NCBI GenBank assembly: GCA_965178125.1
Contig: OZ237736.1
Location: 930,001-994,000, forward strand
DNA length: 64,000 nt
Direction of reading: 5' to 3'
Origin: Bilabrum cf. latius
Lineage: Eukaryota
The position numbers and the translations under genes are program-made. This document shows, piece by piece, positions 138-64,000 of the stretch. Below the pieces are notes generated by a model. It was not told where the DNA came from and ran no database searches. It saw nothing but the letters and a program-made list of their open reading frames with translations. The first letter of the stretch is position 1. Each line of letters begins with the position of its first letter.

Positions 138-3100
138 ATGGATTTCGAAGATGATGACTGGGACAATGCAAATGAAGCTTCCTTTGAAGAGAGTCTCGAG
201 TCGAACAATGGTGGCATCCCTTCTACAGCGGCAGCGCAGTCTTCGGCAAGTGCGTCATCAATTTTCCCGGGTGCTGCAGCGCTTTACCAAGCCAAACTGC
301 CAGACCTGCAGGGGGCTTCTGGCGAGCAGACTCCATCCAAAATTGAGCCTGTTGCAGGCGCTGCGGGCTAGCGGCTGCTTTCGAGTGCAGATGCCAGCAA
401 CGCGAGTGGTGCCTCAAGCGATGGCGTGTTTCTAGATCTCTCCAGTCGACGCGATCAAAACTTACCATCCCAGCCAGAAGGTGATGCATCTAGAACAGCT
501 GAATTCATGAGAAGGGTCAATCCTTCCCATAATCGCCCCAACCCGAGGTTCGAAAAGTATAAGGAGCAGCTACTCCAGTCATGTCGACGCGACCTGGCAC
601 GATAGACCATTCTTTCAAAGCTGTCTGCAGCATAGGCTCTGCACCGGTCGCATCTGACCATGATGCTCGCATCGTTGGTCCAACGGTCTTCGGCCTCTTG
701 CAATCCTGCCCTGCAGTCCATCCTTCTTTCGTCTATGCCTGCTCGATTGCTCGCTGCAAGCCACAGGCGTCCCGTGCCCGGTGTGAGCCGAGGATTGACA
801 GTAAGTACGCTTCAAACACTATCACTGAATCACATTGGTACATTGACGCGGTGGTTTGGCTCTCAATTCGAGGCGGTCGGGCGTGGGAGCGGTCCTGCCA
901 CTCCACCTGCCCAGCACGTCGCCACCTCTGAATGGCTGCTCGGGCTTGCCATGCAGCCGCTGCCGCAGCTATCCATCGAAGAGCAGCGGGCTATGTAGAG
1001 CGGAATGGCAGTGCGTAGACAAAAGCCCGCTGCACCGGCAGATTTCGTGCAGCTGTTCGCCGCTAGCATAAGAGCAATGGGCGTACCCTGCAGGCTAGCA
1101 CTCATGGGCGATCCGTTCGATGTCGCTGGCTTCATGCAGGGCAAGGTGGCACAAGCTCGACAAGAAGCCGCAGAGGCAACAAAGCGTGCAAAAATCGAAA
1201 GGAATAAGAGCACGAGAGAAATCGAGATAGATTTGCTCGGGGAAGAAGGAGAGGAAGGTGCAGCTGCTGCAGCAAGCTCGAGTGGCTCCAGTGGCGCGCC
1301 GGACTCCTCAAAGTCATCTGCGAGGCCAGGGACAAAGCGAGGCAGGCCTAGCACAGATAGTAGCCAGGGAACACAAAAATCAAAGCGCAGACGGTCCACG
1401 CAGCAGCAGTCAAAACCAGCCGACTAGACAAGGCTGTGCGGCTCGCTAGCACTAGGGTCTAGAACGAGGTAGGCAGAGCAGGTGGCCATGGCAGACTTCT
1501 AGGCAGCTTCCAGGAGAGCGAGTGGCCGCTGCGCGAGTAAGGCGAGCGAACTCAGGGATAAGCATACGGGCATTTCGGGGGGTTCCCGTTCGGGCGCAAA
1601 AGGGGGCAGCAGGAAGAGCAGCAAGCTTGCGCCTAGTTCCATGCCGGCTTGGAGGAGGCTGCTGCCCAATCCGAACCGGCCCCAATTTATGCAGGAGCTT
1701 GCAAGCGCTGGTGTTGTTCGATGGTGGGTCGAAGTTCTCACGCACGGGCCAAGTGAGGAAGAGGAGGAACCGGGTGGGCAGCAGGCTGCCGCTGCAGCTG
1801 CTGGATTGCCACCTCGTGCAGGTTCAGCGTCCTCTGGCGGCAATGCGCAGGCAAGTGGAGGTGCTTCCAAGCCTCGGTGGGTATTCGTGGATCCGATCAG
1901 GCAGCTTGTTGATACTCCTTTGGTACCTGCTGCTCTAAGGGCAAAATCAGATCCAGTTCAGTACGTACTGGCTGCCTCCGGGTCTGGGCGACTGACCGAC
2001 GTGACCCGGCGGTATGCACTGTCTTGGCCTGAAAGCAAGCTCGCCAGGGACAAGTGTGGTGTAGGACCTGCCGAAGTTGCTGCTCTGCTTCGTGCGTTTG
2101 AGCCTCCTGATGCGCACCCCCAGCCACGCCACAGGGGCAGGCAGCAGGATGGCTCGTCTCATCGCAATGCCCTCCAGACCGACCTGACAGGGATCGATGC
2201 AGCCGAGGCACAGGAGCTAAAGCGAGCAGAAGAAAGCGTCCCTGTGCCCACGAGTGTGCAGGGATTTAGAAGGCACGCAGAGTATGCACTGGAAGGACAG
2301 CTGCTCCGCAATCAGGTCGTACGACCTGGTGCAAAACCTGTGACTCTCTTCAAAGGCAAAGCAGTGTACCGCAGAAGGGATATCGCAGAGTGCCTTTCCA
2401 AGGACAAATGGATGCAGTTGCACGCACGTATCGTCAAACAAGACTAGTTAGATCGTCCTGCGGCCATGGTCATGTACAAGCCACGGCACAAGAAATCAGC
2501 AGCCGCGGAGGCTGAGGACGTCGCGAGTGGCAAGGCGTCAGCCTCCAAGGCTGGCCCACAGCCTGACGCTGAAGGTCGGATCCCATTGCCTCACTTCGGC
2601 GAGTGGCAAACAGAGGCCTATCAACCACCCAGAATTACGAATGGCATCGTCCCGAAAAACGATTTTGGGAACGTCGAGCTGTGGAACGAAAAGTGCATGC
2701 CAATCGGTTGCGCCGAGGTTGATCACCCATTGGCAGCCAAGGCGGCTGCCTCGCTCCGTGTGGACTATGCGAAGGCATTTAGAGGCTTTATTAGGAAGAA
2801 GGGGCAGGCACTTCCTGATATTCGAGGCATCGTAGTTGCAAAGGAGCACTAGGACATGGTGTAGCTCGGCGCCATCGAGCTCCAGGCCGAAAGGGACAGA
2901 AAGGCTGCTGAAAAACGTAGCAAACAGTTGGTCAAGCGATGGGAGAAGCTGGTTCACAAGGCGCTTCTTCGGTCCAGGCTACGTGCTGACTACGGAAAGG
3001 GCGGAGCGGCTGCTCTGCTATCCAGTAGCTCAGGTGCTGCTAGTGGAAAGTCAGCAGCTGCCCAGGGGCCTCAGTCTACCAAGGCAAAGGGAATCGCGAG

Positions 3101-3470
3101 GGGCGGTAGCGAAGGATCAGAGACAGCTTCCACTGGTCCTGGAAAACAAGCTGAAATTAGCGCGAGGCTTATTGACAACAGTGCAAAGCTGTCCGCGCTA
3201 CAGGGCATGCTATCCGAAGCAAACACCGCCTAGTAGAGCCGCGCCTCGGGCGGAGCCCAGCGAGCCGCTGTGGATTCGGATGAAGATGACGACGAGGACG
3301 AGGACGAGGTCGAGGATAGTACGAGAGATCGAGAAGCTAGCTAGCGAATGCAGTAGCGATATGAAGATTTCGATGCATATAGCCCTCTGGTGCACACTGC
3401 TGCTGGAGAGGGCAGCAGCAGCAGCTCTGCTGGCGTAGGACCGTCTTCAAGACAGTATGAGGAGCTTTAA
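138..3470 (+). CDS. XPC: XPC/Rad4 DNA damage recognition protein (~1,110 aa, TAG read as Gln)
   Basis: Track ORFs 138, 660, 1005, 1641, 2466 and 2928 share one frame and are separated only by TAG (about 14). Rad4 motifs: WWVEV..WVFVDP, LTDVTRRYA, YALEGQL, VPKNDFGNVELW, RWEKLVHKALLRSRL. Ends ..QYEEL-TAA. Confidence 0.93.
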
Positions 3471-3555
3471 TGCATTTGTGGCAGAGTGGTTGACCATCGT
3501 GCTAGTTGGAATGGATGTTTGCCGTGTTCCACGCTGCCCAGTCAGAGACAGAGGT

Positions 3556-4902
3556 TTAGTTCCAAGTCGCATCGCAGACACATCTGGACCGCCGATGCAG
3601 CACGCAGCAAGGACAATTCGCCCCTCTGTAGTCTTCGCTCCTGCACCAAACGATGAGGGCATGCCTCTGACCCCTTGTGACGTCCTTGACCCTGTGCAGG
3701 TGCTGGCCCAGGTGAATCATGGCTATGCCAGGAATTGCAGGAACAGTGTCCTCCAGCTTGCCTTCATCTTCTGAGCTGCGGAGGCCCCTAAACTCCAATT
3801 CGCCGCCATCGAAATCAAGTCCCAAGCAGCAGTTGAGAGTCACCTCAGAGTCATCTGTGTGCGCGACAAGCCCCTTCCGGCTCCCTGCCTTGGCTCGCAG
3901 GGCCGCCTCAACCTCCACCTCCTCGCTGCTGCCTTCCCCCCCGCACCTGCCAGTGGTAGCACCGGCGCTGCTAGCTCCAGTACCTGCGGCATCCGGTCTT
4001 CCCGTTCCTTCAGCTGATTCCATGCCCATCTCCTAGCTGGTCGTCTGAGAAGATAAAGAGATGGCCCCAGAGGAGGCAACACCCGCTGTGACTGGGCCTA
4101 CCTCGCCGTCGCCCTCGCCCTCGCCCTCGCCCGCGCCCTCGCCCTCATCGCCCGCCCCAGAGGCAGGGCCGCCCGGCTCGGAGCAGCTTGAGCGCGTCTT
4201 GTCGCGGGTGTCGCGTCGTTCCTGGTGCTGATATGACGCGATGTACCCGTGGCGATACTCGAGGAACCCGCCCCCCACTCCAGGAAACAGGATGCCAGCC
4301 AGCGGGCGGACGACCATTCGCATGAGGGCGTCCTGGAACGGCTGCAAGCCCATCGAGTCCAGGACTGCACTGCCTTTGCCAAGGCCCTGCGCCGAGCGTT
4401 CCTTGTCAGACAAGCCAGCCTTCTGGGCGGCAGCGTCGGACCACTTGGAAAAGCTGGCCGACTCTTCGAGCAGTGCATTGCATACGTCTGCCGGAAACAG
4501 CCGAAAGCGGTACACGAAATCTACCGGCTCATCCAAGGCGCGGAGAACTGCCCCGGGATGCCTCTTGGCTAAAGCTTTGAGGATGGTTGGGTCAAACAGA
4601 CTGGCAGGATCGTCTGCAGCCCTGTGCAGTAGCGACCTTGCAACCGGTCTGTATAGGGCAAGCATAGACTTTCGCGCCCTCAAGTCCTCCATGGCCTTCT
4701 TGACACCATCCAATTCTTCTCGCAGAAGTCCGTCTAGTGCTTCGAGATCATGAGCAGTCCATTTTGCTAATGCGTGTGGATAGTGTCTTCTGGCGAAAAT
4801 CCCATGCAAAATCATTGCCAGGGACTTGGCCGGCTATCCCTTACGCCTCATTTCATTGATTTTTGTTTTGTCGATATCTTCAATCTTTGATGGTTCTGAC
4901 AT
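3556..4902 (-). CDS. 2-oxoglutarate/Fe(II)-dependent oxygenase (PLOD/ICU11-like)
   Basis: Motif HTDDSEVTLNCCLG..FDGGEL..HLGQHLH..RHALIVW (HxD..H..R). Single frame from ATG 4902 through 2 TAGs to TAA at 3556. Confidence 0.85.
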
Positions 4903-4994
4903 GTGCTTGCAAGAGCAAGTCTATGCAGTAATACTGCAATTGTTCGGCGACTTGTGCAGTTGCAGTAGGGACGTGTCGTTTTTCGTTTTCTTCC

Positions 4995-7900
4995 TCACTT
5001 TACGGGCGGCGGTCTCAAGCACCCAGCGTCGATCAAAGCGGCTTGCAGTCTGTCTGACTGTCTTTGCAGTACCCTAGCAAAGCCCTGGGTCGGCGGTTGC
5101 GGCAAAATGGCCCCGAGAGCCGCCACATCGTCGGCTGCACTGACAGGCTCTCGGCTAGACGGCCACGCGCCCTCCACCATAGCAGAGGCACCCAGCAGAC
5201 AAGCACCGGCAGCATCTCCCTTCGACTTCCCTTCGGAAGCAGTAGTATCTGCCGCCGCCTCGCTGCTGTTGACACCGGCCCCAGCTCCACCGCCGACGCT
5301 CGTTTCCCCAGTCAGTGCAAGCAGCCCCTGCAGCATGCCAAGAAGCCTGGCCCCGTGGACCGCATAGTGGGCCCTTACAAGAGCCTCCATTCCCCCTGGG
5401 GGTTTCTTGAGGGCACCAATCGCCTGCGTGACCGCTACCACCACCGAGTTCTCGTTGTAAAGCAGTGCCTGCCGCGCGTGCCCGGGCATGTCCTCGCAGC
5501 CCTCGAGCCCTGGCTCGCTGAAGTACGGCAGTCTGCTCCCGAGCAAGAGGCCCTACAGGCTGACTGCCACCTGCAGTATCGACGACTTGCCCGGCTACCA
5601 CCCCTCGCCCGTGGACCCCTCTCCCGTCTCCCAGGTACCAAGCAGACTGAGGCACACCTTGCCCGAGCCCTATTCGTACAGGTTCGGGTGGCCCCGCTCG
5701 CCGGAGAAAGACCGGAAGTGCACGAACGGCGGCCGAGACGGGAAATCGACGGGCGACATGAGCACGTCGAAGAAATGCAGCACGTGTGCACAGGGGCTGC
5801 ACGCCGGCCCCGCAATCGCAAGGCGAAGCAGAGCGATGTCCTCTGCGTAATGGCATGCGTACACGCCGGGAGGCAGCTCCGATCGCAGGATCTGCAGCTC
5901 CCGCTTGATCGCCCGAGCGAATCGCGGGTTGCTGCTCGCGGTCCGCATGCTGTGCGACCGCCATAAGGGGGGTCCTCCCGACTCCATCCCGCCTGCATGG
6001 AAATCGCCCGGTATCTTGTCAAGTGCGAGCAACTGGCTGTCGCGGAAGCCAGAACAGGCACGAATTTCACTTATAGCTGCCTGCATTGCCACGCCGTGCT
6101 TGTAAGTTGTAGTCGGCGAGGCAATCGAACTTGCCGCATCGCTCCCATTCGACACGTCTTCGGCGGGATCGGCCCCGGCCGAGGTCGAACCCGACGAGGC
6201 ACCATCTCGGATAGCCACCCCTAGATCAACGAGAGGATGCACACTGCTGCGCTCGCAGGGCTTGGCGTCTGGCCAGGCGTCCGATGCTGCCCCACTCGAG
6301 GCCTGTGGCTGAGGCGGCAGCAGATCCCCTGCCTGCTAGCTGCCTGCCTCGCCGCCGTCGGAACTCTCACTGCCACCTTTGGCAGACTCTCCCAGCAACT
6401 TCTCCAGGAGCGTGCGAAAAGATGCAAGTGAATCAGATGCACTATCCGCCAGATCACCGCCCTTGCCGTCTGGGGGCTATTTTGATCTTGAGGCTGCGAT
6501 GCCGGATCGCTGGCCGAGAGCAAACACTGCAGCAAGTCCATCCGCTGACAAGACACCAGTATGCAGCATTCGAGATGCCACTATCGCATGCTGTTTGTCA
6601 TCTTCTGAATCGACCTTCTTCAGATGTACGGGCAGGGTAGCCTCCAAAAGTCGGCTGGCGTGTCCCTCACAAGATTTTCCGGAGCCAGACGCGGGACTAG
6701 AGACTTCTCCAGCGCCAGTGATAGGTCCAGCATGTGATGAGAGAAGCTGTGGAGGACGAACCAGAGGCATGCGCATCCCAGCACCCGCCGCCGCTGAGGC
6801 TGACCCTCCCGGGAAAGACATCGCCTCACCCGTTCCTCCTCGCTGCATCCCCTAGAGTCTCACCATGCTGTCAGAGATCTGCGCGGCCTGCTCTCGGGAC
6901 AGCTGAGCCCCGGCCTGCTGCAGAGCGGCCTCGACTGCGGCACGGGCCCTGTCCGGGTCACTGCCATCGACATCGATCGTGATCAACTGCGCACTGGCTG
7001 CGCTGCCGGGCGGTGCCTCCTTGGGGTCGCTGACCGGAGCATCCCCCTGGTCACCGAGATTGTGCAGTTGGAACGGGTGCGTCTTCGAATAGGAGCCATC
7101 GGACCAGCACACGAGAAGCATGCCGTCCGCGCACGTGCGGCGAACTTCACCGAAAATGACGCGCTGAGTCGAGCCCCCTGCCGATGCATCGCCTTTTAGG
7201 CCGTCCGATCCTTCCCTACTGCTGCTGCTACTAGACGCTGGGCGCGCTTCGCCGTCCCCTGCCCCGCTGGAGGGGTCCGTTCCGTGGCCCGGGGGGTCGG
7301 GATCTATCTCTTTCCCACCAGCAGACCCACAGCTGCCCTCATCGCCACCCAGTCGAGCCACCACATCAGACACTCTGAAATTGAGCGTGCGACACAGCAC
7401 TAGATCGTACATGCTCTCTTCGGCATCTGCCCCCCCAGCTGTGGTCCGTTCCAATGGATCCATACCTCCGGCGAAAGAACCAATCTCTAGCTCTTTTTCA
7501 AAGGCAGCCATTTTTCCTCCAACTTCATCCTTGATGCGCTATTCTGGGGCATCTGCGGGTGCCGGCATCCAGTAGACCTGCACGGTGCGCTTGGCATCGT
7601 TGCAGCTCTGCACCACTCCTAGTCTTGATTTGCGAGCCCCACCATCCTCGGAGCTCTCCTCCCTGGGCTGCACGTAGTCTCCGGGCAGCAGCGTCTGGTC
7701 TCCCATCATGTACTCTGGCAGCAGCGCAAGGAGCACGGCGGGCACGGCTTTGGACATGGTCCCGTCTGACCACACCACGTCTACTTTCGACTTGACTTGG
7801 TGCACAAGCACAGCAGCCGACCGCCGATCGAAAGCGACGGGGAACTCAGGCAGGCCCGTGGTGCTGCCTGCCTCTCCAGAAGCATCGCTGTCGCTGCCGT

Positions 7901-9099
7901 CATCTTTCGCTCCAAGCTGGTCCGCTCCAGTGGGCGACGAGTTGCTGGCGCCGCTTGGCGCTGGCGGGCCACTGCCCGCAGCGGAGGCGCCTGCCCCAGC
8001 CCCAGCCCCAGCCCCAGCCCCCACGGAGGTACCTGCGTCCTTGCGTGCCTTGACCCGCTAGGCTGCTGCAACTCCAGAGGGTGTCAGCAGACCAGGAGCC
8101 CCGTACGTCCAGCATATTCCCCGCGGGTCGCGATAGGTCAGCCTATGCAGCTTGGGGTCATCGACAGGGATGACCGGAGGAGGCGGGCCAGCCTCTGTGG
8201 GCGCGAGACTCTGCTGCCAACTGACCATGATATTGGCGGCTCTGGTGCCAATGCAGACTCCTACCTTGTGCTTGTGCCTAGAGTAGGATCCTTTCATCCA
8301 CCTAGCAGAGCGGAGGACCTGCGCGGGGGCGCGGACGGGGCAACCCGCCGTAATGTCGTCGAAATCACCAGACTCGATCTGGAGCCGCTGCTCGTCCTGA
8401 GGCCGAATCGTGCAAACGCTGCCGTCGTCAAAGCCAATCGTGGTCTCTGCCTCCCATGAATCCACCTAGCCGACCCAGCTATCGTAGCATACGACCTGGG
8501 ATTGAATCCAGCCGTCTTGGCCCATGTCGGCGTGCTCGTGCGGCACCCAGGCCAGATCGGCATCCCGCCGGTGCACCGCTTCGAATTGAACCCCAAGAGA
8601 CTGGTGTATAGCAACCACCCTTCCAATTTGATTCAGGAGGGGGTCCTGCCCCTGTTGCTTCGCTACCTACACGTAGTCCCCAGGCATGAATCGCCTGTCT
8701 AGAACGGAGATGTTTTGCGCTTCAACGACAGAGAGCTGATCTGGGTCATCAAATCCGTACTCCTGCGGGGCAACATAACCACTCAGCTCGACGAGCCCCT
8801 ATCCGAGCGCTGGTAGATCGTCGTGGCTTGGTTCCGAGTGGCGGTGGTGTTCACTAAAGCGAGAAGTGTGCTGCGAGTGTGTGAGATGCATTCCTTGCGA
8901 GGAGCAGTACAGAGCCTTAAGGATTTCAAACTTCTACAAGACAACGGCCGTTTCTTCTCACACCCTGCATCCGAACGATAGTGTGGCAATCCAAGTCATC
9001 ATCTCTGCCACAGAGCACGGTGTCTCCGAGATACATGCCACAAACCGAATGGTCGCCCTCATCCAGTTTTCTTCGAGATTCGTGTATAATCTTCTCCAT
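4995..9099 (-). CDS. UBE2O: UBE2O/UBC23-like E2/E3 hybrid ubiquitin-conjugating enzyme
   Basis: N-terminal VLDRRFMPGDYV motif. C-terminal UBC domain HPNLYE*GSGKVCLSLLGTW..ILQVAVSL*GLLL..PYFSEPG with the catalytic Cys. One intron (8961-8871), about 11 in-frame TAGs, TGA stop. Confidence 0.88.
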
Positions 9100-9771
9100 G
9101 ACTCGAGATTGCACGGATTATCTTCCCATACAACGCACAATAGGCCGCAGTTGCCTTAAAATACAGAGATACAGAAATACATTGTTGGGTAAAGATTCCA
9201 TGAACACCCAGATGCACCGTTGCCCCCGAGGGGGTTTGGGTGATCACCTAGATCCAGAGGAGCCCTAAAAACAAAGGACTACAAGACCCCCGGCCCTTTC
9301 AGGCCAAAGGCCCCCCGTTCTCAGCCTATGCCGCCGAGTTCCCATTCTTCGCCATCAGTGTGGTCCCCCACAGGCCCCCAGCCTGTTGCCTTCACAAGGA
9401 GAAAGCATACAGGTGCGGAGCGTGTGCCCGGCACAAGGCGCGGTCCAGTCCCACATCGGGGTCCCCGGTCGAGACCCACCATTTCCTCCTCCATGACCGT
9501 CTCTGCGTCTCACGATCCTTCAGAGAGGCGAGCATGCACGCGCTCATGCCTTTGGCCCATTGCCTCTCTATATCCTTTAGCAAGCCGTGGGGCTTGAAAA
9601 TCCGTCGCTGTAGTCGGGCGTTCGCATTGGTTGCCGCTATCAGCTCCTGCGTGGCCGTGGCGGCTAAGGCAGCCGCCGCATCACCCTGCCTTTCCAATTT
9701 CGGAAGTGGCGTGCGCTTATTGGTCGGCCCAAAAACAAGAGTCTTGGCTGCCGTTGATGCGTTCACTGACC

Positions 9772-11517: not shown

Positions 11518-11724
11518 AATGGGAACTTTCTCGTCGGAATTAAGCGTATGGTAGGTCTGACAGTATCTATTTAGACGATGAGCGAGCCGTTTGGGGCGTC
11601 AAAAGCCTGCGCTGCTTGCGGCCGTAGACTTCCCGGTTCGGTGCCACAGTGTGACCAGTGAAGAGACGCAATCCGTTTTTTTAATTGGTGCACCCTCTCT
11701 TTGCGAACAGTTACATCAAGCACA

Positions 11725-13506: not shown

Positions 13507-13649
13507 TGAAGGACTCGATCATGGAGCTTGCATTCCTCCAGTCTTTGGACTATTCCATCCGAATGTTTTGAACTCATCAAGGTGATGTGGAGGAGCAATC
13601 TAACTACAGGTGGGGATAAAGCATACACATTATTTCGCTTCCAAGACAA

Positions 13650-14785: not shown

Positions 14786-14943
14786 TCACGTTTTTAAGTT
14801 TATTTGGCTCAAAATCTCTTGGCTTGGCCTTCCAGTGAAATTCTTAGCTCAAAGTCAATCAGTGTGCCGTGGTATGATGTGTATTTAGCCCAGATCATCG
14901 CAAGCGACTGCACGATTCAGCTGCATGCATCAATCGCAGTCCG

Positions 14944-33849: not shown

Positions 33850-33923
33850 CGCCTGTGAAAAAGCAAAAATATGGTTTACCGTGGAATATCTGCACCGTAC
33901 AACTCGTTTTGACCCGCTTCTCT

Positions 33924-39319: not shown

Positions 39320-39433
39320 GAAGCTGGACTGTTCTGCTCTACGAACTGTTGCGACCAATTCGAATAACGATCGGATCAATGATTGGTTGCGACCGGTTCA
39401 AGTGCAACTGGAATCAAAACACATATCCGCAGA

Positions 39434-46483: not shown

Positions 46484-46681
46484 GGTGCTGCTTGTTGAGG
46501 CGTTTTCTGGTGTTCTCTTTCTGAACTGCTCCGATTAACTTTGAATGCCTCACGGCTTGGCCTCGGCTGTTCCAAGTTGCGCGCTCTCATCCTTGGCGAA
46601 AGAGCGCCATGAGCGGACAAAAAATCGAGTAAATATGAAATAATTCTAAGATTAAACAGTATAGGAATGAATTTGGCTGAA

Positions 46682-48712: not shown

Positions 48713-48797
48713 TGGATCTTGGAGTTAGGTATTGGTTCTCTCTCTCTCTCTTGCTTGCGGACGTTCAGCAAATTACCAAAAAGTGGCACCAATAAGC

Positions 48798-51419: not shown

Positions 51420-51588
51420 GGGATTACGTTGTTGTGTTGATCTCGGATGTTGCGACCAGTCTTGGTCAAGTGGTTGCGACCGCACCACAGCGATGAAACA
51501 TTGCAACGAATTCTATTTCTTTCAGAAAAAGCCTGCATCCGCACAGCGAGATAATATCAGTAGACTACAATTCTAACTGTGTGCCATA

Positions 51589-54500
51589 ATGGCTCGTCCA
51601 ATGGCGAGAAGGATGATGATGGCTACGGCAGGACGCGCGACAGCAGATGGAAAGAATTCAGGCCCCCCTGCTGCTGCAGGAGATTCGCAGAGTGATAAGC
51701 ACGGTTATCGATCTCCATCAACACTAGGTCGAAACAGGGGCAGGAATGGTATGACATCCATTGGCTCGTTCAAGATGGGTGGTGGTAGCTCAACGCATCA
51801 GCCCAGCAGAATTTGTGGCGGGAGTTCGTCCTCAGCCAACATGTCCCATGCTCATCCTGGCTTGCACGCTCGTAGAAAGAGTATAACTGAGCTAGTTGGA
51901 CCGGCAAGTGCCAGTAATGCGCGTGCTGGCCCTTCGTGGAATGGTGGTTCTAATCAGGTTGGAGGGGCAGTCCATCGGTCGGCTCAATCGCTTGGGTTAC
52001 CGGTCGATGTTCTAGAGCAAGCCGCTTTATAGCAATCCAAGTACATGTCTGGTGCGCTTGCTAGAGTAAGTCCCGAGTATCGAGCAAGCAGCAGACCACA
52101 AGAGTCTGCTCGGCACAAAGCAACAAGCTTACTTGATCGATTCAGGGAGGCCGCGTAGCAAGTGCAGCAGCGAGTTCACTCTGCCAAGGATGAACACGGT
52201 ATTGATATTGATAATGCTGCCGATATGGCGGCGCAATGGCACGCCTACCGGGTGCTGCGCCGGTTTCTGCTGAGGATGGTCAGGTTCAAGCGGCGCATCC
52301 AGGAGAAGGAAAGGTCGTTTGCCGGGAAAAAGCTTGCGGAAATATGCTGCTACCTCTTCTTCTTGTTGTTCTTTTCGCTTAGTACGATCGTTGTTGCCCA
52401 GGATCAGGCAGTGCTGCACCAAGGGAACCAGATCCGCCGAGAGCTCAACAAGGAGTACACCCCGTACGTCGGTGCCGAGCCGACCAAGCTTGAGGACATG
52501 GTCACCTCCGTCGAGATGTTTGCTTGGCTGCAAGGCCCATTCCTCAACACATTTTATGGTCCCCCGAACGACCTCTTGTAGTCTGTAGATGACGCTTGGG
52601 GTGCCACGCTAGATCCCAATTTCACTTGCTTGGCAACAGCCGACGGGCAGAGCCAGACAGACGGCGACTTGTCTGGAGTGAGTGAATCCGGAGTCTTCAC
52701 TACGCAGTGTCCCGGGTAGACATTCAATGCTCTCGGAAGCTCGCTAGAATCTCGCCCTGGGCTTGTGTTCGGCACCTCGAAGGTAGTCGGGGGTATTCGA
52801 GTCGCCCAGCTGCGAGTCACAGACCAAGGCGGGGATTGTGTAGATACGTACGGCTTCAGATTGGGAGATCGAGAGAGAGCACCCCCTTGCGTGGGTGACA
52901 ATGGCGGTTGGAGCTCGGATGAGGAGAGCTCCGAAAGCTTTGGCCTGATGAACACGACCGTGTACCGATACCCGGGCCCTGGGCGCCCGTTCGAATTTGG
53001 GGGGGTGCGGCAGAACCAATCCCTCATGAGTGTCTCCGTGCAAGATGAGCGCGCAATCCCTATCAACGGCATGCGAACCACAGCGACGCACAGCTTCTAC
53101 CCCACGCCTGCCTTCCCAGTGATACTGCCGAATAACGGCGCTGAAGAGGCTCAGAGACTGCTGCGATGGATCCAAGAGGCAAGGTACTTTGACGAGCAGA
53201 CCAAGGTGCTGAGTCTGCACGCCACTCTGTACAATGCATAGCTGGACTACTTCACGGTCGTGGCGATTCATTTCGAGCAGCCCAAATCAGGTGGAGTCCT
53301 GCCGTCGCTGGACTGGACGACTATTCGCCTATTCACCTACTTTGACTCTAGGGAGGTGCACTTCAGGATAGCTGAGGGAATCGTTGCTGCGTTCTACGTG
53401 TACTTTTTCCTCCAGGAGATTGCAAAGGTGTGGGTGTACGGCCTGGAGCATCTGCTGTCCTTTTCAGCTGTGTTCCACAACCTCAACATCATTATTTACC
53501 TGGCCGTGTGGATCTTTCGTTTCATGTCGGTGCAGGCTGCACCCGACGAGTCAACCATCGTAATGGATAGCGACAACTACTACGAGTTTCGAAGCGCGGC
53601 TAACTTGAAGTACATTTCGGTGCTGCTGAATTCCATCAATGCCTTCCTGGCATGGTTCAAGTTGATTCGCTACTTGAGCTTGATTCCCATTTTTGCCCTC
53701 ATCACTGGGACATTGGCCAAGTCTGCAGGGCCGGTGTTTTCATTTATTTTCGTGTTTATGATCGTTGTCGGCGGATTCTCTGCGGCTCACTTGCTAGCTT
53801 TTGGCACGAAGCTTGAGAGCTTCAGAAACCTGACCACGAGCTCGTTCAGCTTGCTGCAGTCGCTGTTGGGCGACTTTAATTTCACCGAGATGCGCAGGGC
53901 GCAGTGGTTCTTGGCACCAACACTCTTCGTGTCATTTGTCGCGATTAGTGCTTTCTTCTTGCTCAACCTGCTGATCGCCACCGTGGCTGAGGCTTATGGT
54001 GAGATGAATGAGCAGCTCAAGAACGACCCAAACAGCCTCACCCAGGGGCAGAGGATCTACGAGTACGTGCTAGAACTGCTCGCTACAGTGCCTGGCTTGG
54101 ACTGCTGTCTCGAATCGTGCAGCACGACGTGGCGTCGCATGCAGCGCGATAGGGCCAACAGTGCTTTGAGGCGGATGTACGAAGGGACAGCAGGTCGTGC
54201 CATCGCACTGTCACAGCTGGTGGATGCAATGGATGGCAAAGTGTCGCGGGGTCCCGCCGCAGCAAAACACTCTGGTAGCAAAGGCGCCGTGGTACCAACA
54301 AGCGAAGGCACACCCTTGGGCAAGGAAGAGGGTGCGACGGGGCTGGTAGCTGGAGCCTCTCAAGATGGTGATGACCTGCAGCACCATCAATCACAGAGGA
54401 ACAGGGCGTTACAGGCAGCTGCTATGGGACTAGGCAAATTCGTTGCAATTGGCAGGAGCGCAGCATCTACGATGGACCTCACTGAAAACCGCGTGCACAC

Positions 54501-56325
54501 AACCGGGTCACTGAAGAAGCTTCACTCGAGAGAGCTCAATGAAGATGAGAAGGCTGTCGCTCACGATGAAAGCGGGGAGTTGCTAAACAAGAAAAGCAGC
54601 TACTCTGCCGCCGGATCGCGGCGGTGGGAGGCAGTGCAGAAGCAAGTGGCGGTGCAGCCATCTCTGTGGTCTTCATGTGGTGACGCGATACTCCGGTTCC
54701 TTCAGGCAGACCCGGAGCTTGAGAAACACGAGGATGACCCGGAAGAGGTGGGTGGCCCGTTCTAGAGTGCTGTTGCCAGGACCATCAACACTCGGGTCTT
54801 CTTGAAGCGACGCCTTCTTGGTGGTGGTCAATTCGACCGGGTGCAGGCTGACCGCCTCCGTCTAGCAGAGCTAGATTTCTTGAAGCGAAGCCCGTGGTAT
54901 GAGTTTGCTTCAAAAAAGCTGGACGTGGAGTCACCACCCATGCCAGAGTACTGCGGCATGCTGCAGTATTAGAATCCTGAGGAGGTGCAGGGAGCTGGCA
55001 ACGACGTGCCCCCTGAAGCAGCGCGCTCTGGTGGCACGCCCGAGCCGAAGCAAGAGCCCGATCCAGCTGAAGCTAGGAATCAACCAAACGGTCCTCCGCA
55101 AGCATCAGGCAGTAATCGTTTATCTACAACTGAGCGGCACGCGAATGGCAGCGGCAGTGCCGAGGCCACGCTGCCCAACCGATTGCTTTCCACGGACGCT
55201 GGCGACGAGGGGCTAGTGCTTGCTGTGGCAGATCAACATGATGCCGACGGCCCTGGTCGTTCGCTTGCCGAAAGAAGAGGGAAGTAGACGCCCAGCGTTT
55301 TAATTTCAAGTCAAGAGAGCAAGCACTTGGCATCGAAGCCAGCAGAGGTTGCGCCGTCGACTGAGGGCAGGATGCATCGTGAAATGTACAGACCCGACCC
55401 GGCAGGTGTCGGCTTAGGGTCAGCCTCCACTGGTAATAGAGACATGTCGCATGGCTCCGACAGTGAGATGCGCGTGGAAGAGATGTCAGAGATGGGCGAA
55501 CCCATGAACCGACTAGCTATTGCTGGCGAGGCTCACTATTCCGCTAGAGAGATCCCAGAGGCGCTGCGTTCGAATACAGACGAATAGAGACCGACATTCT
55601 AGGAATCATCGCAGGCTGGAAGCAGCCGATCTGCTGCTTCGGGCGATCGCGTGCTCAGCGTGGTCGTCCTGGAGCGGGATCTAGCCACAGGCACAGCCGT
55701 CCCTATCGGTTGGGCTCCTCTACCACGCCACGGTGGAAGAGTCTAGCTGCCGGGGATAGAAGCAGGTGGCGAGCAAGTAGATGCTGGAAGCGTTGTCATC
55801 GTTCCGATACCTGTGCCCATGGACTGCACGCGAGGCCCATAGACTTCTCGGCGGTCACTCAGCGCTGGAAGGGACCGGCGCACTTCTCGCAGCGGGATTC
55901 GGTCGTTGATGCGTTCTCCTCTCGGTGGCGGACGAGCTCCATTCCGCACCCCATCGAGCAACAGCAGGACCGAGGCCGGCTCGTAGGACAGGCGGTCCAG
56001 CCTGCTGCGGCGTGGCTTAGGCGCTGCATCACCACGGGTGACCGGAAAGCGCAGGCCCTCGCGGATCGGAGGAGGCATCATCACCGCCCAGCTGCCAAGC
56101 GTGCAAGAGCACGCGACCGCTGCAGCAGGTAGCATGGAGTATGGGCGCAGGGATGGCGCAGCTGGTATCGAAGGAGGAGGCATGCAGTAGCATCAACACA
56201 TATCTGTCGGCAGGACCAGGCGACCCTCGGCCACTCCTCACCCACCACGAGCCCCACCACCGCCCCCACCTGGAAGGCCAAGGAGCGGCTCTGGTGAGCA
56301 AGATGGTGAGGATGGGCACGATTGA
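51589..56325 (+). CDS. Polycystin-2 (PKD2/TRPP)-like cation channel (~1,578 aa)
   Basis: TOP domain GGIRVAQLRV..YNA*LDYF..FEQPKSGGV, six TM helices, pore LLGDF, S6 LLNLLIA. About 14 TAGs, mostly in the tails. TGA-TGA stop. Confidence 0.85.
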
Positions 56326-56433: not shown

Positions 56434-59400
56434 TCAGTCGCTGTCAAGCTCACTGTCGTCGTCGTCGTAGACACCCCCAACACTCTCGGCCTGAGTCTCA
56501 GTCCCAGACTCCTCCGAGTCATGACCTTCGATGATTCCACCGAGCGCCTTCTTGATCGCAGCCTCGTGCTTCTTGCGCTCCTCCTCCACGTGCTTTTCTC
56601 GAAGCCTCTGCCTCACCTCGCGCTGCAAAGCTCGGACACTGCGGAGCTCCATTGCCTTCTTCTTGCGGTATAGAAGCACGCTACGGGATTCAACGCCATC
56701 CATGGCCCCATTTACTTGCCGCTTTGTCTGTCGCAGCTCATCGCGCTCCTTTTCCATCTTGAATTGGGCCGCTCTGCGGTTCTGCTCTTTGATCCTGCGT
56801 GGTAGCTGGCGTCGGTCGAATTCATACGTCCTCTACCGCTCAGACTTGCGTCGTTTTACCGCCAGCAGCATGGCGTCTCGCTGCTGATTCATGGCTTCTG
56901 ACCCGCACGCGATCAACAGCGCCCTGGTGGCCTGCTCTCTTGCTGTGAGCTCGCTGTAGACGGGTGGCACCCCGCTGCGCTTGATTTCCACGTAGAACTC
57001 TGCCACAAGCGGTGCTAGCCGTGGGTCCCATGCTGCTCGCGCGACTCCCTGCAGGGTTGCCTGGGGATGCTTCTACTGGCAACGCTTCCGGACAGCATCA
57101 ACGAACTGTCGAACGTTGAGCTTGCCGTCCATGTGGTCTCCACCGTTCCTCGCCCACTCCTCGCAGGCGTGGTGGAGGAAAGCCGCCCGGAGCATCGCGA
57201 AATCCAGCACCTCTCCTATGCTGTATCCGTTCTAAAACCCTTGCTGATTGAATCGCTTGTCCTTCGAAAACAGCACGTCGTGGTCCATAATGGTGCCACC
57301 ACTGGCACCCTGGGCCTTGGCACGGCTAGAGTGCAGGTCGGACTGAGGCCACTTCGCCTTGGAGCCCTGAAAAGACTTGTTTTCGGACTGCGTCCCGCCA
57401 CCATCAACACCATCCAACTGCAACCTGGGGACATCGTGTGAGTGATGAGACGCTCCACTTGTGCTCTCGCCGAACCAGCCCTAAGCGAAGCCCGCTGCCT
57501 CCCCATGCCCGCCTGCTTGCTCAATCTGTGGTCCCTCCGGCTCGGGTGCGTACTAGTCTTCTGCTGCAAGTGCTGGCGGTCCCGAAGCAGTCGGACCAGC
57601 ACCGCTGTCTGCCACTCGAGTGTCAAGTCCGACTCCGAATGAGTGTGTCCGCACACCATGCACCGGTGCTGGCAGGTGCCGCTTCATCACTGTGAATGCG
57701 TCTGTCCGCACAGCCTCTGCAGCTCGAATGTGGGCACGCGTCATTGGAGACATGGAAGCCAGCCGCTTTCGATCGATCCGTGGTGCTTCCACGGTCTCGG
57801 CTCGTTTTGAAGATCCAGTATGAATCGGGGGAAGAGCACCCGAATGGGCTGTTGGCGACCCAGTTCTGGCTAGAGCATCTGCCACGAGGGCAGTTCCGGG
57901 TCTGCTCCTGCTCCTCGCACTTTGCGCAGATCGTATTGTGCGCGCCTCCTCCGCTTCATCACTACCTGGTTCCAGCAGTGCATGCACTGCCCACTCATCT
58001 TGAACCGCGTCAGGAGACAGGCGGGTGAACCACGCCACGATGCCAGACTCCCGAGGCTCCAACGGGAGATTGGACGGGTGATCCAGCGGCTCTCCTGGCC
58101 TTGGCTTTCCTACCCCACCGAGTCGGTCATTGATTCGCTTGCCCCACGTGACGAGGTCTGGGTGCTTGCCTGCAGCTGCGAGCTGCCCCATGCGGGTGTC
58201 CTCTCTCTCCATTTGGCTTCGCTCATACTCTGCTCGATCGCGCTCGGCCTCTTCCTGCATTTTGTGTTTCCTTTCTCTGTCCTGGTCAATACGACGCTTG
58301 AGCTGCAGCAGGTAGGGCACTGCTTGTCCCTTTCGGCTGAGTCTCTCACCGAGGGCATCCCCGCCGGTGATGTCCTTGGTCGACCACTTACCTGGTAGAT
58401 CGCTGAGGGGATTCCGGGCGCAGTCAAACGAATCAAGTCGATTCGCCAACAGGGCGAACGTCACCGGAATTGACTGCGAGGCAGTAGCATAGTAGGAAGA
58501 AGGCATTATGCGTAGCGAAAGCAAAATGTGGGATCAGCGTGCTGCAATCAGAGCCTCGTTGCCTTACCTTGATCTGGTTGTTGTAAAGGTTAAGGTTGCG
58601 CAGGGACAGAGATTCCCCGAGCGCGTCCGGGATGTACTTGATGCAGTTACAGGAAAGGTCCAATGTCTTGAGACACGGCAATGCTCCGACTGCCCCGTCG
58701 ACTGCCCCGATGCGGTTGGAGCTCATGAGCAGCTCAACCATGCTGTCGCACGTCGCCAGAATCGAGCCGAGCTCCTTGAAGCTGTTGTGGTTCAGATTCA
58801 AGTGCTCCAGTCTAGCCATCTCTGCGAGTTGGTCAGGCACCTTGTCGATCTAGTTGTAGGACAGGTCCATGAATCTGAGCTCATGCATGGCACCAATAGA
58901 GATCGGAATAGCGGGCTGGTGCTTGTCGGATCCCAGCCGGTTGTGGGACACCCGCAAGTGGACTAGCTTCTGCATGGCTGCCAGGTCCGCTGGAAGGCAA
59001 ACCAAGCGGTTGTGATCAACGTCCAGGGTTTGCAAGTCAAGTAGCTTGCCGAGCCCGCGCGGCAGTAGCTACAGCTGGTTGTGCTTTGCCGTCAGCTTTA
59101 GCAACGCAGCACACCCGCCGATAGACTCGGGGATGCTGTCGAGGTTGTTGCTGTCCAGATTGAGACTTCGAAGGCTGACCATGTGACCAATCATGACTGG
59201 AAGCGACCGGATTCGATTGGAGGACACGTCAAGAGATTGCAGCCTTCTGCAACGGCCGAGGGAACCGGGCAGGGCGACCAAGTCGTTGTTGGCGGCTCGA
59301 AGATCTGCGAGTCCCACGCATCGACCAAGCCTGCTTGGAAGCTTTGAAAGCTTGTTCCAACTTACCCAGAGCTTTACCAGCCCTGTCATTGTCTTGCAAC

Positions 59401-61924
59401 CCAGAGTGCTCGGTAAACTCTGCAGGCGGTTGTTGGTTGCGTCCAGCTCAGCAAGCACGGAACATTTGCCGATCGAGTCTGGCAGCTCTTCGATGCAATT
59501 ATCACTGATTCTGAGCGCTCTCAATGATGTCAAGTCTCCCAGGCTGTTGGGTAGCTGCGAGAGCCGGTTGTTTGACACGTTGAGCAGCACGAGCTACTGC
59601 AGCTGCCCCAAGTCTTTCGGGAGCTGTTCCAGCTGGTTGCCGCTGAGGTTGAGCACCTTGAGTGATCTGCAGTAGAAGAGATCCACAGGAAGGTCACCGC
59701 TGAGCAAATTGCTGCTCGCGTCCAGTTTCACCAGCGAGTCCAGCTTGTCAAAGAGCGTGTCCTGCGGTAGCCTGCGGATGCTGTTCGTGGAGACGTCCAT
59801 GACCTGCACGAACTGCAAAGCGTCAGAGGCTTCCTTCATGGTCCACAGGGCACTCGGCAGGCCGGCAAGGCCACGGTTCGACAGATTGATGCGGTCAAGA
59901 CCTCGGCGAATTGCGTCTTCCTTCGTCTTGCGTTCCTGGTCCTATTGATGCTGAAGACGTGCCATGGCGGCGTCGTGCTTCGCTTGGCGGGCCTCCCGTT
60001 GCAGCCTCTCTCGCAGCTCTTGCTCTTGCTGCCTAGCCGTTTGTATGCGTTTCATGTCTGCCTCCGCCTAGGTTCGATGTTCTCTCACGAGCACTGCCTG
60101 CTTCCTTCTCTCTGCCTTCACCTCTTTGGCCCGCTGCGCGTGCGACTTCCTGGAGCTGACCACGCCCCGGATCCTGAATTTGGTCCTCTCCACCTGTGCG
60201 CGCTCGACCGCTTCGGAGAGCTCCGCATCAAAAATTTCCTCCTAAGTTTGCATTTTGTGTACCAACAGTTTTCTTTTCGATGCCGCTTCCATCGGTATCT
60301 CTCGAGACAGCACACCCATGCGCCGGAGTTCAGCCGAAGCATCTACGACCCTGGCGTACATCCGGCGGAACTAGGGGTACGAAAGGGATAAGCTCCCAAG
60401 TGGATCTTCCACCGCGAAGGCATGTTCTATGGCAGATTGCTTCGCCTGCACCCCAAGTGCTCGTGTTGCCTCCAAAGCGCCGACCAGATCCACTACGCCG
60501 GGGTCCTTCCGCTGGCTGGGAATGCTCGGCACGTGGCCCTTCGCAGCTGGACCGGCCGGCTGCGGAGGTTTTGCAAACATGAAAAAGGCGTCCTTCACCA
60601 TTGCTTTTGTTCTTGGCTGCAGGAGTGAGACGATGTACAGAATGTACTGCAGCTCTTCGAGCTCGATCCTGCCTCCCGCGTCGAGGTCACCCTCCACAAA
60701 CCAGGACCAGGCCTGGGCGTCATTGAAGCGGATCTCGACACCCTCCAAGGCGGTCTTGAACTCTTCAAAGACAAGGCTATCGCGTTTAGGGTGCTTCCCT
60801 AGCGCAGCCATGACGTCCGCGGCGACCTGCTTGAGGTCAGCGAAGGACTTGCCGCGGATCGAGTCCGGCTGCTGATCGCCAAAGGCTGCAGCCATCGAAG
60901 TGGCATCCCCGCCGCTCGCAGGTCCCCCCTCGCTGCCACGTAACTGCTTGCTGGCAGCTGCTATTCTTGCTGCGGAGTGCTTGTCCGACCCGATGTCCGG
61001 CAGCGCCTCGTTGCTGAGAGCTGCAAACCCGAACACGACCGCTGGGGCGGGCGCGCCAGACATGGACACGTAGTTTGGCCTGGCAATCACAAGAGAGTTA
61101 AACTTCGAGATCTGTAAAAATGGCTGAAACGACTTGCCAGCGCCGGATTTCTCGCCTCGTGTCTTCGCTGCGATGCCTGCGCTCCCAGCGGGTGCACGTG
61201 CTGTCTGTGCAGCCTGAGGCGCAGCATTTGGGTCCTCTCGCACGACTGCAAAACCATCACTTGGGAACTTTGCCGTGTCCAGTGGCAACATCAACTCATC
61301 TGGCATCACTGGAGGCAAGCTTCCGAATTCTTGCTGCTCGCAAACCAGCTAGGCGCAATCTCTCAGCTCCCCGTCCACATCGGAGGCCGAGAGGGCCGGG
61401 CTGAGGTACGCAAACACCGTGTCGTTCGCCGGATTGTTGAACACCTTGACGTTCTCCAACCGAATCCATACACTTCCATCTACTTGGGCGATCGATATGC
61501 TGCCCTGGCCATCGGGTGCATTGGGAAATCCTCGAAGCAGCCCTCGCATTACCATGCGTTTGCGGGCAACCGCAAACTCTCCATCCCGCAATCCGGTTGC
61601 CGTGCCATCTTTTCGAAAGGCAGCCTTGCTTTTTTTCCCTTTACCTGCAACTTTCTCAAGCGCATACAGGCCCATGAGTCTACGCTTCAGCGTGACCTTT
61701 CTGCTCTTGCTCGCCTCCCGCGGGTTTTCCTGCGACTCGCCGGAAGCGGCCGACGCCGGTCGTCTCTCGTCCGAATCAGGCGGTGCGCGAATGAACTGGT
61801 CGATATCATCCTGGAGGGCCTCGCCGATGCGAAACGCAATTGATTTTTCCTGCTCGGAATGGCCTGCTGCTCGAAGCAATTCAACGGGATGGATAGACAC
61901 TTTACTAGCCAGCTAGTCTGACAT
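56434..61924 (-). CDS. Large leucine-rich-repeat protein with EF-hand-like and coiled-coil regions
   Basis: Many LxxLxLxxNxL repeats at about 58.4-59.9 kb. Intron 58567-58474, about 14 TAGs (first at codon 4), TGA stop. Confidence 0.82.
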
Positions 61925-62487
61925 TGTACACAGACAGCAATCGATCGAATTATTTCTGTTTATTGTTTCATGCCCTTTTGTGGGGTGGTTTGCCCCGTTT
62001 ATCGTGCCGATAGTAATGAAAGGATCTGATGCGAGCGCGGCTGTGGCGACTGCAGCCCACGGTGGCGAGGAGCTGACTGCAGCTACACGACGGCGCACAA
62101 TGAAATGCAGCAGCTGCCGGCCGAAGAGGAAGCTACAAATACATACGAGGATGCCGGCATACGCAGCACGATTGAATGCCAGTGGCACTGGGCGAAACGG
62201 CATGGCTTCATTGTGCATGCCCGCTTGTCTGCCGGTGCGCTCCACACAGCTAGGGTGTGCCCGCCATAAAAACACATGCAGGAGCATGTTTGCATTTGGC
62301 CGCTGGGCATATGAAATGGTGGGTGTAATAGATCACTCGATGCTGCGTATTGCGCTTCTCATCTCTGGTCTTCAGTAGCAGGCACGCATCACTAGGGCGC
62401 CTCCCCCTTGTGCAGACTAAGCACAAATCCCGCCATCGCTGACACTAAATAACAGAGAGCGCTACCGCCTGCAATCCTGCAGGCTGC

Positions 62488-62891
62488 TCATCTGAGACGG
62501 CGTGCCTCACGCTCCCACTCAAGAAGCACCAACACGTCGCCCTTCTTCACGGGTCCCTTCACGTTACGGATGATCTTACGGGCGGTGTCATCGATGAACT
62601 CCACCTTCACCTGGGTAACGTTACCGGTGCTGCCGGTCCGGCCCAAAACCCTGCGAAGGCGAAGAGAGTAAAAGGCAGCGGATGCAACTACCGATAAATC
62701 GAGTGAAGGCGCCAACCATGCGGTAATGCAAGCCCTCAAAGACAACAAACACAACAAATAGCCTCACTCAGTCACGCGAGCAAGCTTGGTCTCGACGTCC
62801 TGCGATATTTGAGAGGCAAAACAGCGAAAGCGATTCATAGGTACGATATTATGAGGCAATTCTCTGCCATACTAGCTCCCACAGGAACCAT
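62488..62891 (-). CDS. RPS28: 40S ribosomal protein S28 (eS28)
   Basis: [36 protein letters not shown]. Intron 62767-62651 is clear. The ATG-only first exon (62891) and intron 62888-62800 are tentative. Confidence 0.93.
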
Positions 62892-63104
62892 TGACTTTGA
62901 ATTTGGGATATTACATCGACGATGACAATCATGGGCCAAGGATTATTGCCCAGAACTAACCATGACGGCTAACAACCCCTGATATGTTGCTGCTGTGGCT
63001 CCGTGGTAGGATGGATCGGATCATTTCTGTGGGTGCCGCGCGAAACTGGTTCCGCTGCAAGGCAACGGATCGATCCCGACCAAAGATCATTAAAAGTTCC
63101 CCAG

Positions 63105-64000
63105 ATGGACGACATTCTCGTTGACGGAGAAAAACCACAATATACAGCGAAGGGTGCAAACACACTGCGCGGTGGAAAGCGCCAGTATGGATGCAGAATA
63201 TTGCAAGGAAACTTCGAGGAGCAACGGTATGAGCCTGGAATCTATGAAGGCAGGGAGTATGGGTCATTTGTCACCGAAGAAAGCGCTCGGTAGGCAGCAG
63301 GTAAGAACATTGACCAGTACTACTGAATTGATCGCCATGATTTCCCCGGCATGGACTCATGCTTGGAGTCATTTGATTCATTTGCGCAGTTGCTGGAAAG
63401 AAGCCCCGCGTGTTCGGACAGAGAGTCATGGAGCGCTTGGAGGAGGACGAAAGGGGGTCGAGGTACGACTACAGAAATACTATTCTTCCAGACAAGGCCG
63501 CAGACCCCACGAAGTGGACAAGCACCATCAAAGCCTCATACCGGCCGACAGGTCAGCCCGCGGATGAAACCGTCAGGGCAACCTCAGGAACCTTTCAAAT
63601 GCCATTGCATCCTCTCAAAGATGACAAAGAATAGAGAGAAAAGTACAGGCTGCGCTGGATCACCGGGTAGCTCCCATCTGCGACGAAGGGGCGGTTCCAG
63701 TCATCAATGGCCGAGGCGCAGGCCGGGGCCGTCGCGCCGCGTTTCAGGCCCCCACCGACACGAAAGCTCGTGGCAGTGCCAAAGTCAATGGAGATTTTGC
63801 GAGAGCGAGCCATCACCCGCCATGGGGCGTGGGCTCCGGTGCTGCTGCGCCGAGCCTTCGAGGTCGCCGAAGTGTCCGACGGGAGGGCCGGCCTGAGCAA
63901 GGAGGAGCTCGTCACACTGCTGCAGGACGCGGGGCTGTCCATGTCGGTTGACGAGGCGGACGAAGTATTCCTCTTCCTGGACTCTGACGGCTCCGGCTCG
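63105..64000 (+). CDS. Calcyphosin-like EF-hand protein, runs off the window end
   Basis: Intron 63301-63389 and 3 TAGs. Ends in the EF loop FLFLDSDGSGS. Start codon uncertain. Confidence 0.6.

Follow-up and report, generated by a model that had tools for sequence, protein, structure and literature searches.

In-frame UAG codons, very probably read as glutamine, in a gene-dense nuclear contig of Bilabrum cf. latius

The stretch analysed here (64,000 nucleotides (nt) of Bilabrum cf. latius DNA, contig OZ237736.1 of assembly GCA_965178125.1, positions 930,001 to 994,000 of the forward strand; hereafter the window) belongs to a nuclear contig, is gene-dense and has a GC content of 56–63%. Its genes carry numerous in-frame TAG codons, and it is very probable that cytoplasmic translation reads UAG as glutamine throughout, with UAA and UGA as the sole stops. 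The original prediction, made on this DNA from its letters, had proposed a systematic recoding of UAG and not pseudogenes or occasional readthrough. This was confirmed by the reading frames, since all 17 large frames contain from 2 to 14 TAG and neither TAA nor TGA.

Under the standard code, the longest stop-to-stop open reading frame (ORF) of the window has 683 amino acids (aa) and seven ORFs reach at least 500 aa. When TAG is taken as a sense codon, the longest ORF extends to 2721 aa and 18 ORFs of at least 500 aa are found, with a summed length of 18,413 aa. The same treatment of TAA leaves the number at seven, as in the standard code, and that of TGA gives 16 ORFs with a maximum of 702 aa. 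The main gene set was defined as the 17 stop-to-stop frames of at least 450 aa, which hold 122 TAG before trimming. When cut back to plausible coding starts, the frames have 16,929 codons, among them 115 in-frame TAG (0.68%), no TAA and no TGA, so that the predicted lack of internal TAA and TGA was also found. Read in its two remaining frames, this DNA has 170 and 157 TAG, 242 and 402 TGA, and 46 and 77 TAA, respectively; all three trinucleotides are thus common out of frame, which means that TAG is tolerated in frame and TAA and TGA are excluded from it. Thirteen of the 17 frames end in TGA and four in TAA. A code in which both UAA and UAG are glutamine (UAR=Gln, NCBI table 6) does not describe the window, because TAA as a sense codon opens no extra ORF, is absent in frame and terminates four genes. 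Counted as a glutamine codon, TAG (115) stands beside CAG (484) and CAA (209) in the trimmed frames and makes up about 14% of the three. Beyond the 17 frames, two in-frame TAGs are present in exon 1 of the RAD52 gene, two in a NUDIX gene and one in the ORF at 29912–31051, which brings the overall tally to about 120 in-frame TAGs in about 20 genes; the earlier count had given 125–130 TAGs.

Pfam matches were obtained for 12 of the 17 largest frames, translated with X at TAG, and for two smaller genes, the NUDIX gene and a GFO/IDH/MocA oxidoreductase. The TAG codons lie inside matched domains at residues 21 and 81 of SPB1 (FtsJ), 103 of RAD52, 2532 of the RING protein, 159 of the TPR protein, 774 and 909 of XPC (BHD domains) and 555 of the polycystin protein (polycystin domain), and residues 1096, 1121 and 1135 of the UBE2O-type protein adjoin the HPN/Cys region of its UBC domain. 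The interruptions foreseen in the SPB1 methyltransferase, RAD52, UBC, RING and TPR domains are all among them. The TAG of the aspartyl/asparaginyl beta-hydroxylase-like (AspH) gene at ORF residue 770 is located downstream of the sole Pfam-matched AspH stretch (residues 668–706), and the leucine-rich-repeat (LRR) gene has a TAG at codon 4 (M-S-D-TAG) only if translation begins with the ATG of ORF residue 137. Conserved domains lie downstream of TAGs, which suggests that the proteins do not terminate there. Programmed readthrough of individual genes, which concerns few genes and usually one leaky stop, was considered and is excluded by the 2–14 TAG per gene in every one of the 17 genes. The genes are listed below.

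126–3470, plus strand: XPC/Rad4 gene; ATG at 138, 1110 codons plus stop (3,333 nt, as predicted), ends in TAA; 14 in-frame TAG, with the predicted TAG-TAG pair at residues 1036–1037; Pfam Rad4, BHD_1, BHD_2 and BHD_3.
3556–4896, minus strand: OGFOD2-like 2OG-Fe(II) oxygenase gene; ends in TAA; 2 in-frame TAG; Pfam OGFOD2-like.
4995–8870, minus strand: UBE2O-type E2 gene, main exon; ends in TGA; 11 in-frame TAG; Pfam UBE2O SH3 and UQ_con.
9772–11517, plus strand: RAD52 gene; ATG at 9772, ends in TGA; 4 in-frame TAG; Pfam Rad52_Rad22.
12085–13506, plus strand: TPR protein gene, last exon; ends in TGA; 4 in-frame TAG; Pfam TPR.
13862–14785, plus strand: NUDIX gene, exon after the intron 13749–13861; 2 in-frame TAG; Pfam NUDIX.
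14944–23109, minus strand: giant RING-finger protein gene; 2685 codons from its ATG plus stop (8,058 nt, as predicted), ends in TGA; 14 in-frame TAG; Pfam zf-RING_2.
23713–26859, minus strand: DUF5054 protein gene; ends in TGA; 4 in-frame TAG; Pfam DUF5054.
26721–29732, plus strand: gene without Pfam family; ends in TGA; 10–11 in-frame TAG, the last two codons before the TGA.
31844–33499, plus strand: gene without Pfam family; ends in TGA; 10 in-frame TAG.
34011–36272, minus strand: gene without Pfam family; ends in TGA; 3 in-frame TAG; 3′ part duplicated at 29830–30425.
39383–42424, plus strand: gene without Pfam family; ends in TAA; 6 in-frame TAG.
42538–46335, minus strand: SPB1/FTSJ3 rRNA methyltransferase gene; ends in TGA; 3 in-frame TAG, two of them in FtsJ; Pfam FtsJ, DUF3381 and Spb1_C.
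46613–48712, plus strand: EF-hand and ion-transport channel gene; ends in TGA; 2 in-frame TAG; Pfam Ion_trans and EF-hand.
48633–51419, plus strand: AspH gene; ends in TAA; 2 in-frame TAG after trimming; Pfam Asp_Arg_Hydrox.
51577–56325, plus strand: polycystin-type cation channel gene; ends in TGA; 14 in-frame TAG; Pfam PKD_channel and Polycystin_dom.
56434–58533, minus strand: gene without Pfam family; ends in TGA; 5 in-frame TAG.
58433–62332, minus strand: LRR protein gene; ends in TGA; 9 in-frame TAG; Pfam LRR_8 and related families.

Window positions 126–9000 are present, in part or in full, in eleven public runs, which come from six studies. Four of them (X4, X5, X6 and X7), one per study, were aligned to window positions 1–20000, and no weight is given to the parts without X7 cover or to the repeat stretches 4096–4153 and 7980–8028. 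All 45 in-frame TAGs of these 20 kb lie on pieces of X4 DNA contigs, with no other letter at any of them, and 44 of the 45 are on listed X6 pieces. Listed pieces of X5 and X7 cover 33 and 24 of the TAGs, again with no other letter, and an X5 contig over the XPC region (140–3551) has no differing letter at all. In the whole of 1–20000, differing letters are listed solely at 9200–9647, an intergenic repeat. The possibility of an assembly error, with CAG at the TAG sites, was thus checked on independent DNA contigs and found no support there.

The X5 and X7 contigs skip the introns 8871–8961 (CT..AC, which is GT..AG on the strand of the UBE2O gene; joint 8870>8962), 11997–12083 (upstream of the last TPR exon; joint 11996>12084, on contigs bearing all four TAG of this exon) and 13749–13861 (NUDIX gene; joint 13748>13862), and X5 additionally skips the two RAD52 introns, 9838–9932 and 9987–10086. 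Since canonical GT..AG introns are skipped, these contigs derive from spliced RNA. They carry the TAGs of the UBE2O and TPR genes unchanged, with no other letters, and so the TAGs persist in spliced RNA, where they are neither edited nor spliced out. It is extremely unlikely that the TAGs are untranslated letters, be they assembly or sequencing errors, marks of pseudogenes or sites removed by editing or splicing: the contigs of four studies agree at all checked TAG sites, the intron-skipping contigs retain them, TAG is the sole in-frame stop in all 17 genes, and the independent assemblies of related organisms break their ORFs at the same places.

These relatives were found by a HMMER search with the UBE2O protein and by a search with the polycystin gene among shorter proteins. 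Their short predicted proteins (Logan, ENA and JGI assemblies) are 89–98%, 68–79% or about 40% identical to the window proteins. At 14 window TAG positions of UBE2O and polycystin, the closest relative presents glutamine (Q) in seven (UBE2O 97, 164 and 1121; polycystin 381, 555, 1063 and 1237), and D, L, S, H, R, G and K once each; the binomial probability of 7/14 Q against a background of 5.0% is 2e-6. As a control, Q stands opposite 55 of the 77 aligned CAG and CAA codons of the window, and opposite 0–15% of the codons of other residue types. Judged by these alignments, TAG resembles a glutamine codon under slightly weaker constraint. In addition, the UBC-fold column at UBE2O TAG residue 1135, in 146 homologues, contains Q 119 times, L 21, H three times, R twice and V once, and Q is also the residue in four of five PDB alignments among those listed. 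The comparisons indicate that TAG is almost certainly glutamine.

The relatives' proteins are ORF predictions made with the standard code, and the places where they stop are informative in themselves. At six distinct positions they end exactly at a window TAG (UBE2O 300, 473 and 702; polycystin 1063, 1337 and 1342), and at two further positions they end at a CAG or CAA glutamine codon of the window. The codon that terminates them is presumably TAG; two scans of metagenome contigs, one with the window UBE2O and one with a relative fragment as query, gave no confirmed locus of the relatives' DNA. The simplest reading is that the relatives carry in-frame TAG as well, partly at the same sites and partly at sites that are CAG or CAA in the window. 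The code appears to be common to at least one lineage of about 90% identity, and it may be common to the more distant relatives too.

Several observations weigh against the reading of UAG as glutamine. Half of the TAG positions aligned to relatives (7/14) are not Q. In more distant proteins, animal PKD2 and PKD2L1 have N opposite polycystin TAG 555; human XPC has E, K and L opposite XPC TAGs 774, 909 and 913; the column of UBE2O TAG 1121 is mostly S, N or D; and the RAD52 TAG aligns to E or L/K in PDB alignments. The SPB1 TAG columns, in 120 homologues, are too variable to name an amino acid, and the RING TAG occupies a position at which RING-H2 domains presumably have, as a rule, a hydrophobic residue. 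As for the transcripts, X5 is typed as 'probably DNA' and X7 as 'RNA?', and their RNA nature rests on the intron-skipping joints. For window positions 20001–64000 the independent support consists of the relatives' ORF ends in the polycystin gene. The decoding mechanism is one that we infer, with no tRNA in the 64-kb window and no eRF1 among its Pfam-annotated genes. Finally, the gene at 26721–29732 has a TAG two codons before its TGA, which is compatible with context-dependent termination at UAG.

The first group of these points could be taken to mean that UAG stands for a different residue (Glu, Lys, Leu, Ser or Tyr, for example), because several TAG columns are occupied by N, K, L, E, S or T in distant homologues, and UAG is Leu, Ser or Glu in other eukaryotes (PMC11687900). 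This is nevertheless very unlikely. Close relatives have Q at 7 of the 14 positions and every other residue at most once, and the E2 column, with Q in 119 of 146 homologues, has no E, K, S or Y. The codons of K, R and H are one base change from CAG in the genetic-code table, so that the K, R and H among the non-Q residues are what is expected of diverged glutamine sites. In the RAD52, XPC and polycystin PDB alignments, the non-Q residues fall on variable or lineage-specific columns. Two further comparisons were of little use: in the LRR repeats of the window protein, inspected by eye, all three TAG positions are variable and uninformative, and a homologue search with full-length XPC as query gave three matches of 23–52% identity.

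The late TAG at 26721–29732, together with six further genes in which the last TAG lies 24–59 codons before the end (counted by hand), would suit an ambiguous code of the Condylostoma or karyorelict type, in which UAG is glutamine within genes and a terminator in some contexts, for example near the 3′ end. We regard such a code as quite improbable here. No frame among the 17 needs TAG as a terminator, all of them reaching TGA or TAA; one TAG at most three codons from the end among 17 genes is near chance (about 0.3 expected at about 0.7% TAG); sequence that looks conserved continues past the late TAGs; and known UAG-only reassignments retain UAA and UGA as dedicated stops (PMC5304391).

If UAG is read as glutamine by dedicated means, the decoder would be a tRNA-Gln with anticodon CUA, derived most simply from a mutated copy of tRNA-Gln(CUG). 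The anticodon CUA pairs with UAG and not with UAA, which would account for the retention of UAA as a stop. This tRNA would go together with an eRF1 that recognizes the third-position G less well, as was proposed for Iotanema spirale (PMC5304391), and one eRF1 serves all three stops in eukaryotes, so that it is expected to have lost its affinity for UAG (PMC5304391). We suppose that in a genome of about 58% GC, with TGA as the main terminator, TAG stops may have been rare enough for capture; after it, new TAGs would arise from CAG via a C-to-T change.

A search of the window revealed no tRNA gene (tRNA scan), no Rfam family at the gathering threshold and, in the same Rfam search, no rRNA. A tRNA(CUA) is therefore unproven, and glutamine could instead be inserted at UAG by a near-cognate tRNA-Gln(CUG), perhaps structurally changed, combined with an eRF1 that is poor at UAG. 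There are precedents for the components of such a system, as tRNA-Gln reads stops as a near-cognate in organisms with the canonical code (PMC13192750) and a tRNA-Trp(CCA) with a 4-bp anticodon stem reads UGA in Blastocrithidia (PMC12153298). However, 115 sense UAG in 16,929 codons, with up to 14 in one gene, would demand very efficient decoding, the lineages with UAG or UAR as glutamine and known tRNAs carry tRNA-Gln(CUA) (PMC5304391), and a 64-kb window free of tRNA genes is uninformative about the genome. The near-cognate route is for these reasons considered unlikely.

The original prediction had also spoken of a stramenopile-like nucleus, and the evidence on this is divided. The top SPB1 homologue, among 120 matches listed of 5528, is that of Cafeteria roenbergensis, which is 72% identical in the methyltransferase domain; over 887 tree columns the figure is 46%. 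In a quick IQ-TREE phylogeny of this single marker, with 28 rows chosen from the 120 listed matches, the window protein was sister to Cafeteria with an SH-like approximate likelihood ratio (SH-aLRT) support of 96; both branches are long (1.0 and 0.84), the composition was flagged and the thorough search was incomplete. The non-fungal clade around this pair consists mostly of unnamed sequences and includes one labelled Symbiodinium. SPB1 thus gives the affinity tentative support, and UBE2O weakens it, as its top full-length matches are from land plants and the green alga Tetraselmis. The mixed signal may reflect which lineages have intact representatives in the sequence library. On this sequence evidence, 'stramenopile-like, nearest to bicosoecids' is a sensible working label and not a result. 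The Cafeteria SPB1 is annotated as an intact protein of 1167 aa (NCBI), which fits the standard code, the translation table of the record not being part of this evidence. If the affinity is real, the code change arose after the split from Cafeteria.

The UAR=Gln code of NCBI table 6 occurs in many ciliates, hexamitin diplomonads, ulvophyte green algae, Streblomastix and Amoeboaphelidium. It resembles the present case in the change from stop to glutamine, probably via tRNA-Gln derivatives, and differs in that UAA is also glutamine there, whereas here none of the 16,929 codons is an in-frame TAA, and TAA terminates 4 of the 17 genes. Reassignments of UAG alone have been described in a rhizarian, exLh (Leu), and in Iotanema spirale (Gln) (PMC5304391), in Scotinosphaera (Ser), Protocruzia tuzeti (Gln) and several phyllopharyngean ciliates (Leu, Gln) (PMC11687900), and in the ciliate PL0344 UAG is Glu and UAA is Lys (PMC10553269). 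The exLh, Scotinosphaera and PL0344 cases share with the window a nuclear UAG that changes separately from UAA (PMC5304391, PMC11687900, PMC10553269), but their amino acids (L, S and E) are unsupported here, where Q is supported.

The code of Iotanema spirale (Fornicata; Panek et al. 2017, PMC5304391) is the most similar in its terms: UAG alone is glutamine, UAA and UGA are stops, and the same need for a tRNA(CUA) and a UAG-neglecting eRF1 was deduced. Iotanema is a metamonad with UAA as its primary stop (PMC5304391), whereas the organism studied here is stramenopile-like, of the stramenopile, alveolate and Rhizaria (SAR) group by this label, and uses mainly TGA (13/17); here, genomic DNA with introns is at hand besides transcripts. 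Protocruzia tuzeti and some phyllopharyngean ciliates (McGowan et al. 2024, PMC11687900) likewise read UAG, and not UAA, as glutamine, with independent origins. They belong to the ciliates, in which code changes are numerous and nuclei dimorphic, unlike the ordinary gene-dense nuclear contig described here, with its short GT..AG introns and an SPB1 nearest to that of Cafeteria. Cafeteria roenbergensis/burkhardae, a bicosoecid stramenopile, is the source of the closest named SPB1 homologue, but given the long branches it is not a close relative.

A full-text literature search, which the earlier suggestion of a new code in a stramenopile-like nucleus had called for, did not bring up any reassigned nuclear stop codon for stramenopiles or bicosoecids; most subscription journals are outside this search, so that prior publication is possible. 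Its sole stramenopile item concerned the mitochondrial codes of Labyrinthulea and was met as a cited title. The UAG=Gln-only variant has been described in other organisms (PMC5304391, PMC11687900), and it is the lineage that appears to be new. In the fullest form of the proposal this would be the first nuclear code change in stramenopiles: an independent and clade-wide UAG=Gln code with UAA and UGA stops, in a heterotrophic, GC-rich lineage related to Cafeteria with several species at graded divergence, for which GC-rich composition and TGA-dominated termination, and not AT pressure, set the stage. This is possible, but we lean slightly against it. All three identity grades of relatives (89–98%, 68–79% and about 40%) break at, or align Q to, TAG or glutamine sites of the window. 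If the clade-wide series is real, comparison along it would allow the order of tRNA(CUA) gain, eRF1 change and CAG-to-TAG spread to be reconstructed.

Changes of the nuclear code are rare in eukaryotes and the separation of UAG from UAA is rarer, few lineages having come to light since 2017 (PMC5304391, PMC11687900). Another independent origin would matter for being outside ciliates and metamonads and in a GC-rich genome. Public genomic DNA, spliced transcripts and several related lineages make a tractable comparative system, in which it can be asked how the eukaryotic ribosome, served by one release factor, ceases to recognize one of the stop codons. The finding has a practical side as well. 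Gene callers that use the standard code have already cut the proteins of this organism and its relatives into fragments in public collections, and annotations and phylogenomic matrices that include it are wrong unless UAG is translated as glutamine.

Some other features of the window and of its occurrence in public data are described in the following. The five genes without Pfam family (26721–29732, 31844–33499, 34011–36272, 39383–42424 and 56434–58533) have from 536 to 996 codons and rank among those richest in TAG; in one of them, with 536 codons, TAG is used 10 times against nine and 11 for CAG and CAA. These genes hint at a faster accumulation of TAG in fast-evolving genes. In RAD52, the TAG at 9835–9837 is the final codon of exon 1 and is followed directly by an RNA-supported intron (TAG|GT), which places a reassigned codon in the context of a splice donor.

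Sequence of window positions 126–9000 was found (word share 0.57–1.00) in runs bearing four organism labels, from four studies, and small shares of its words in two metagenomes, one labelled 'protist metagenome' and the other 'algae metagenome'. One explanation would be a flagellate that was co-cultured with other organisms or contaminated their samples; another, that the labels are synonymous.

The intergenic region 9199–9655, between the UBE2O and RAD52 genes, has in a DNA run a word depth about 100-fold above its flanks (thousands against about 40) and many variant letters, and the X4 and X6 contigs break at both of its edges. It looks like a high-copy dispersed repeat; a search of 9100–9750 gave no Rfam match, even at E≤1, and no tRNA. 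In the 3′ part of the XPC gene, an acidic low-complexity stretch rich in GAC and GAA (3279–3316) attracts many partly fitting contigs, which results in a very high summed depth (bin 2669–3335) and false long-range joints; this is a nuisance of mapping and not a structural variant.

A segmental duplication of about 600 nt was observed between 29830–30425 and 33930–34525, at the 3′ ends of two minus-strand genes. An in-frame TAG is present in both copies, which are too similar for this to be informative. The copies are nearly identical over most of their length (96% over 300 nt, and longer by alignment), and through the duplication two genes whose N-terminal parts differ have a C-terminal region of about 160 residues and the 3′ flank in common.

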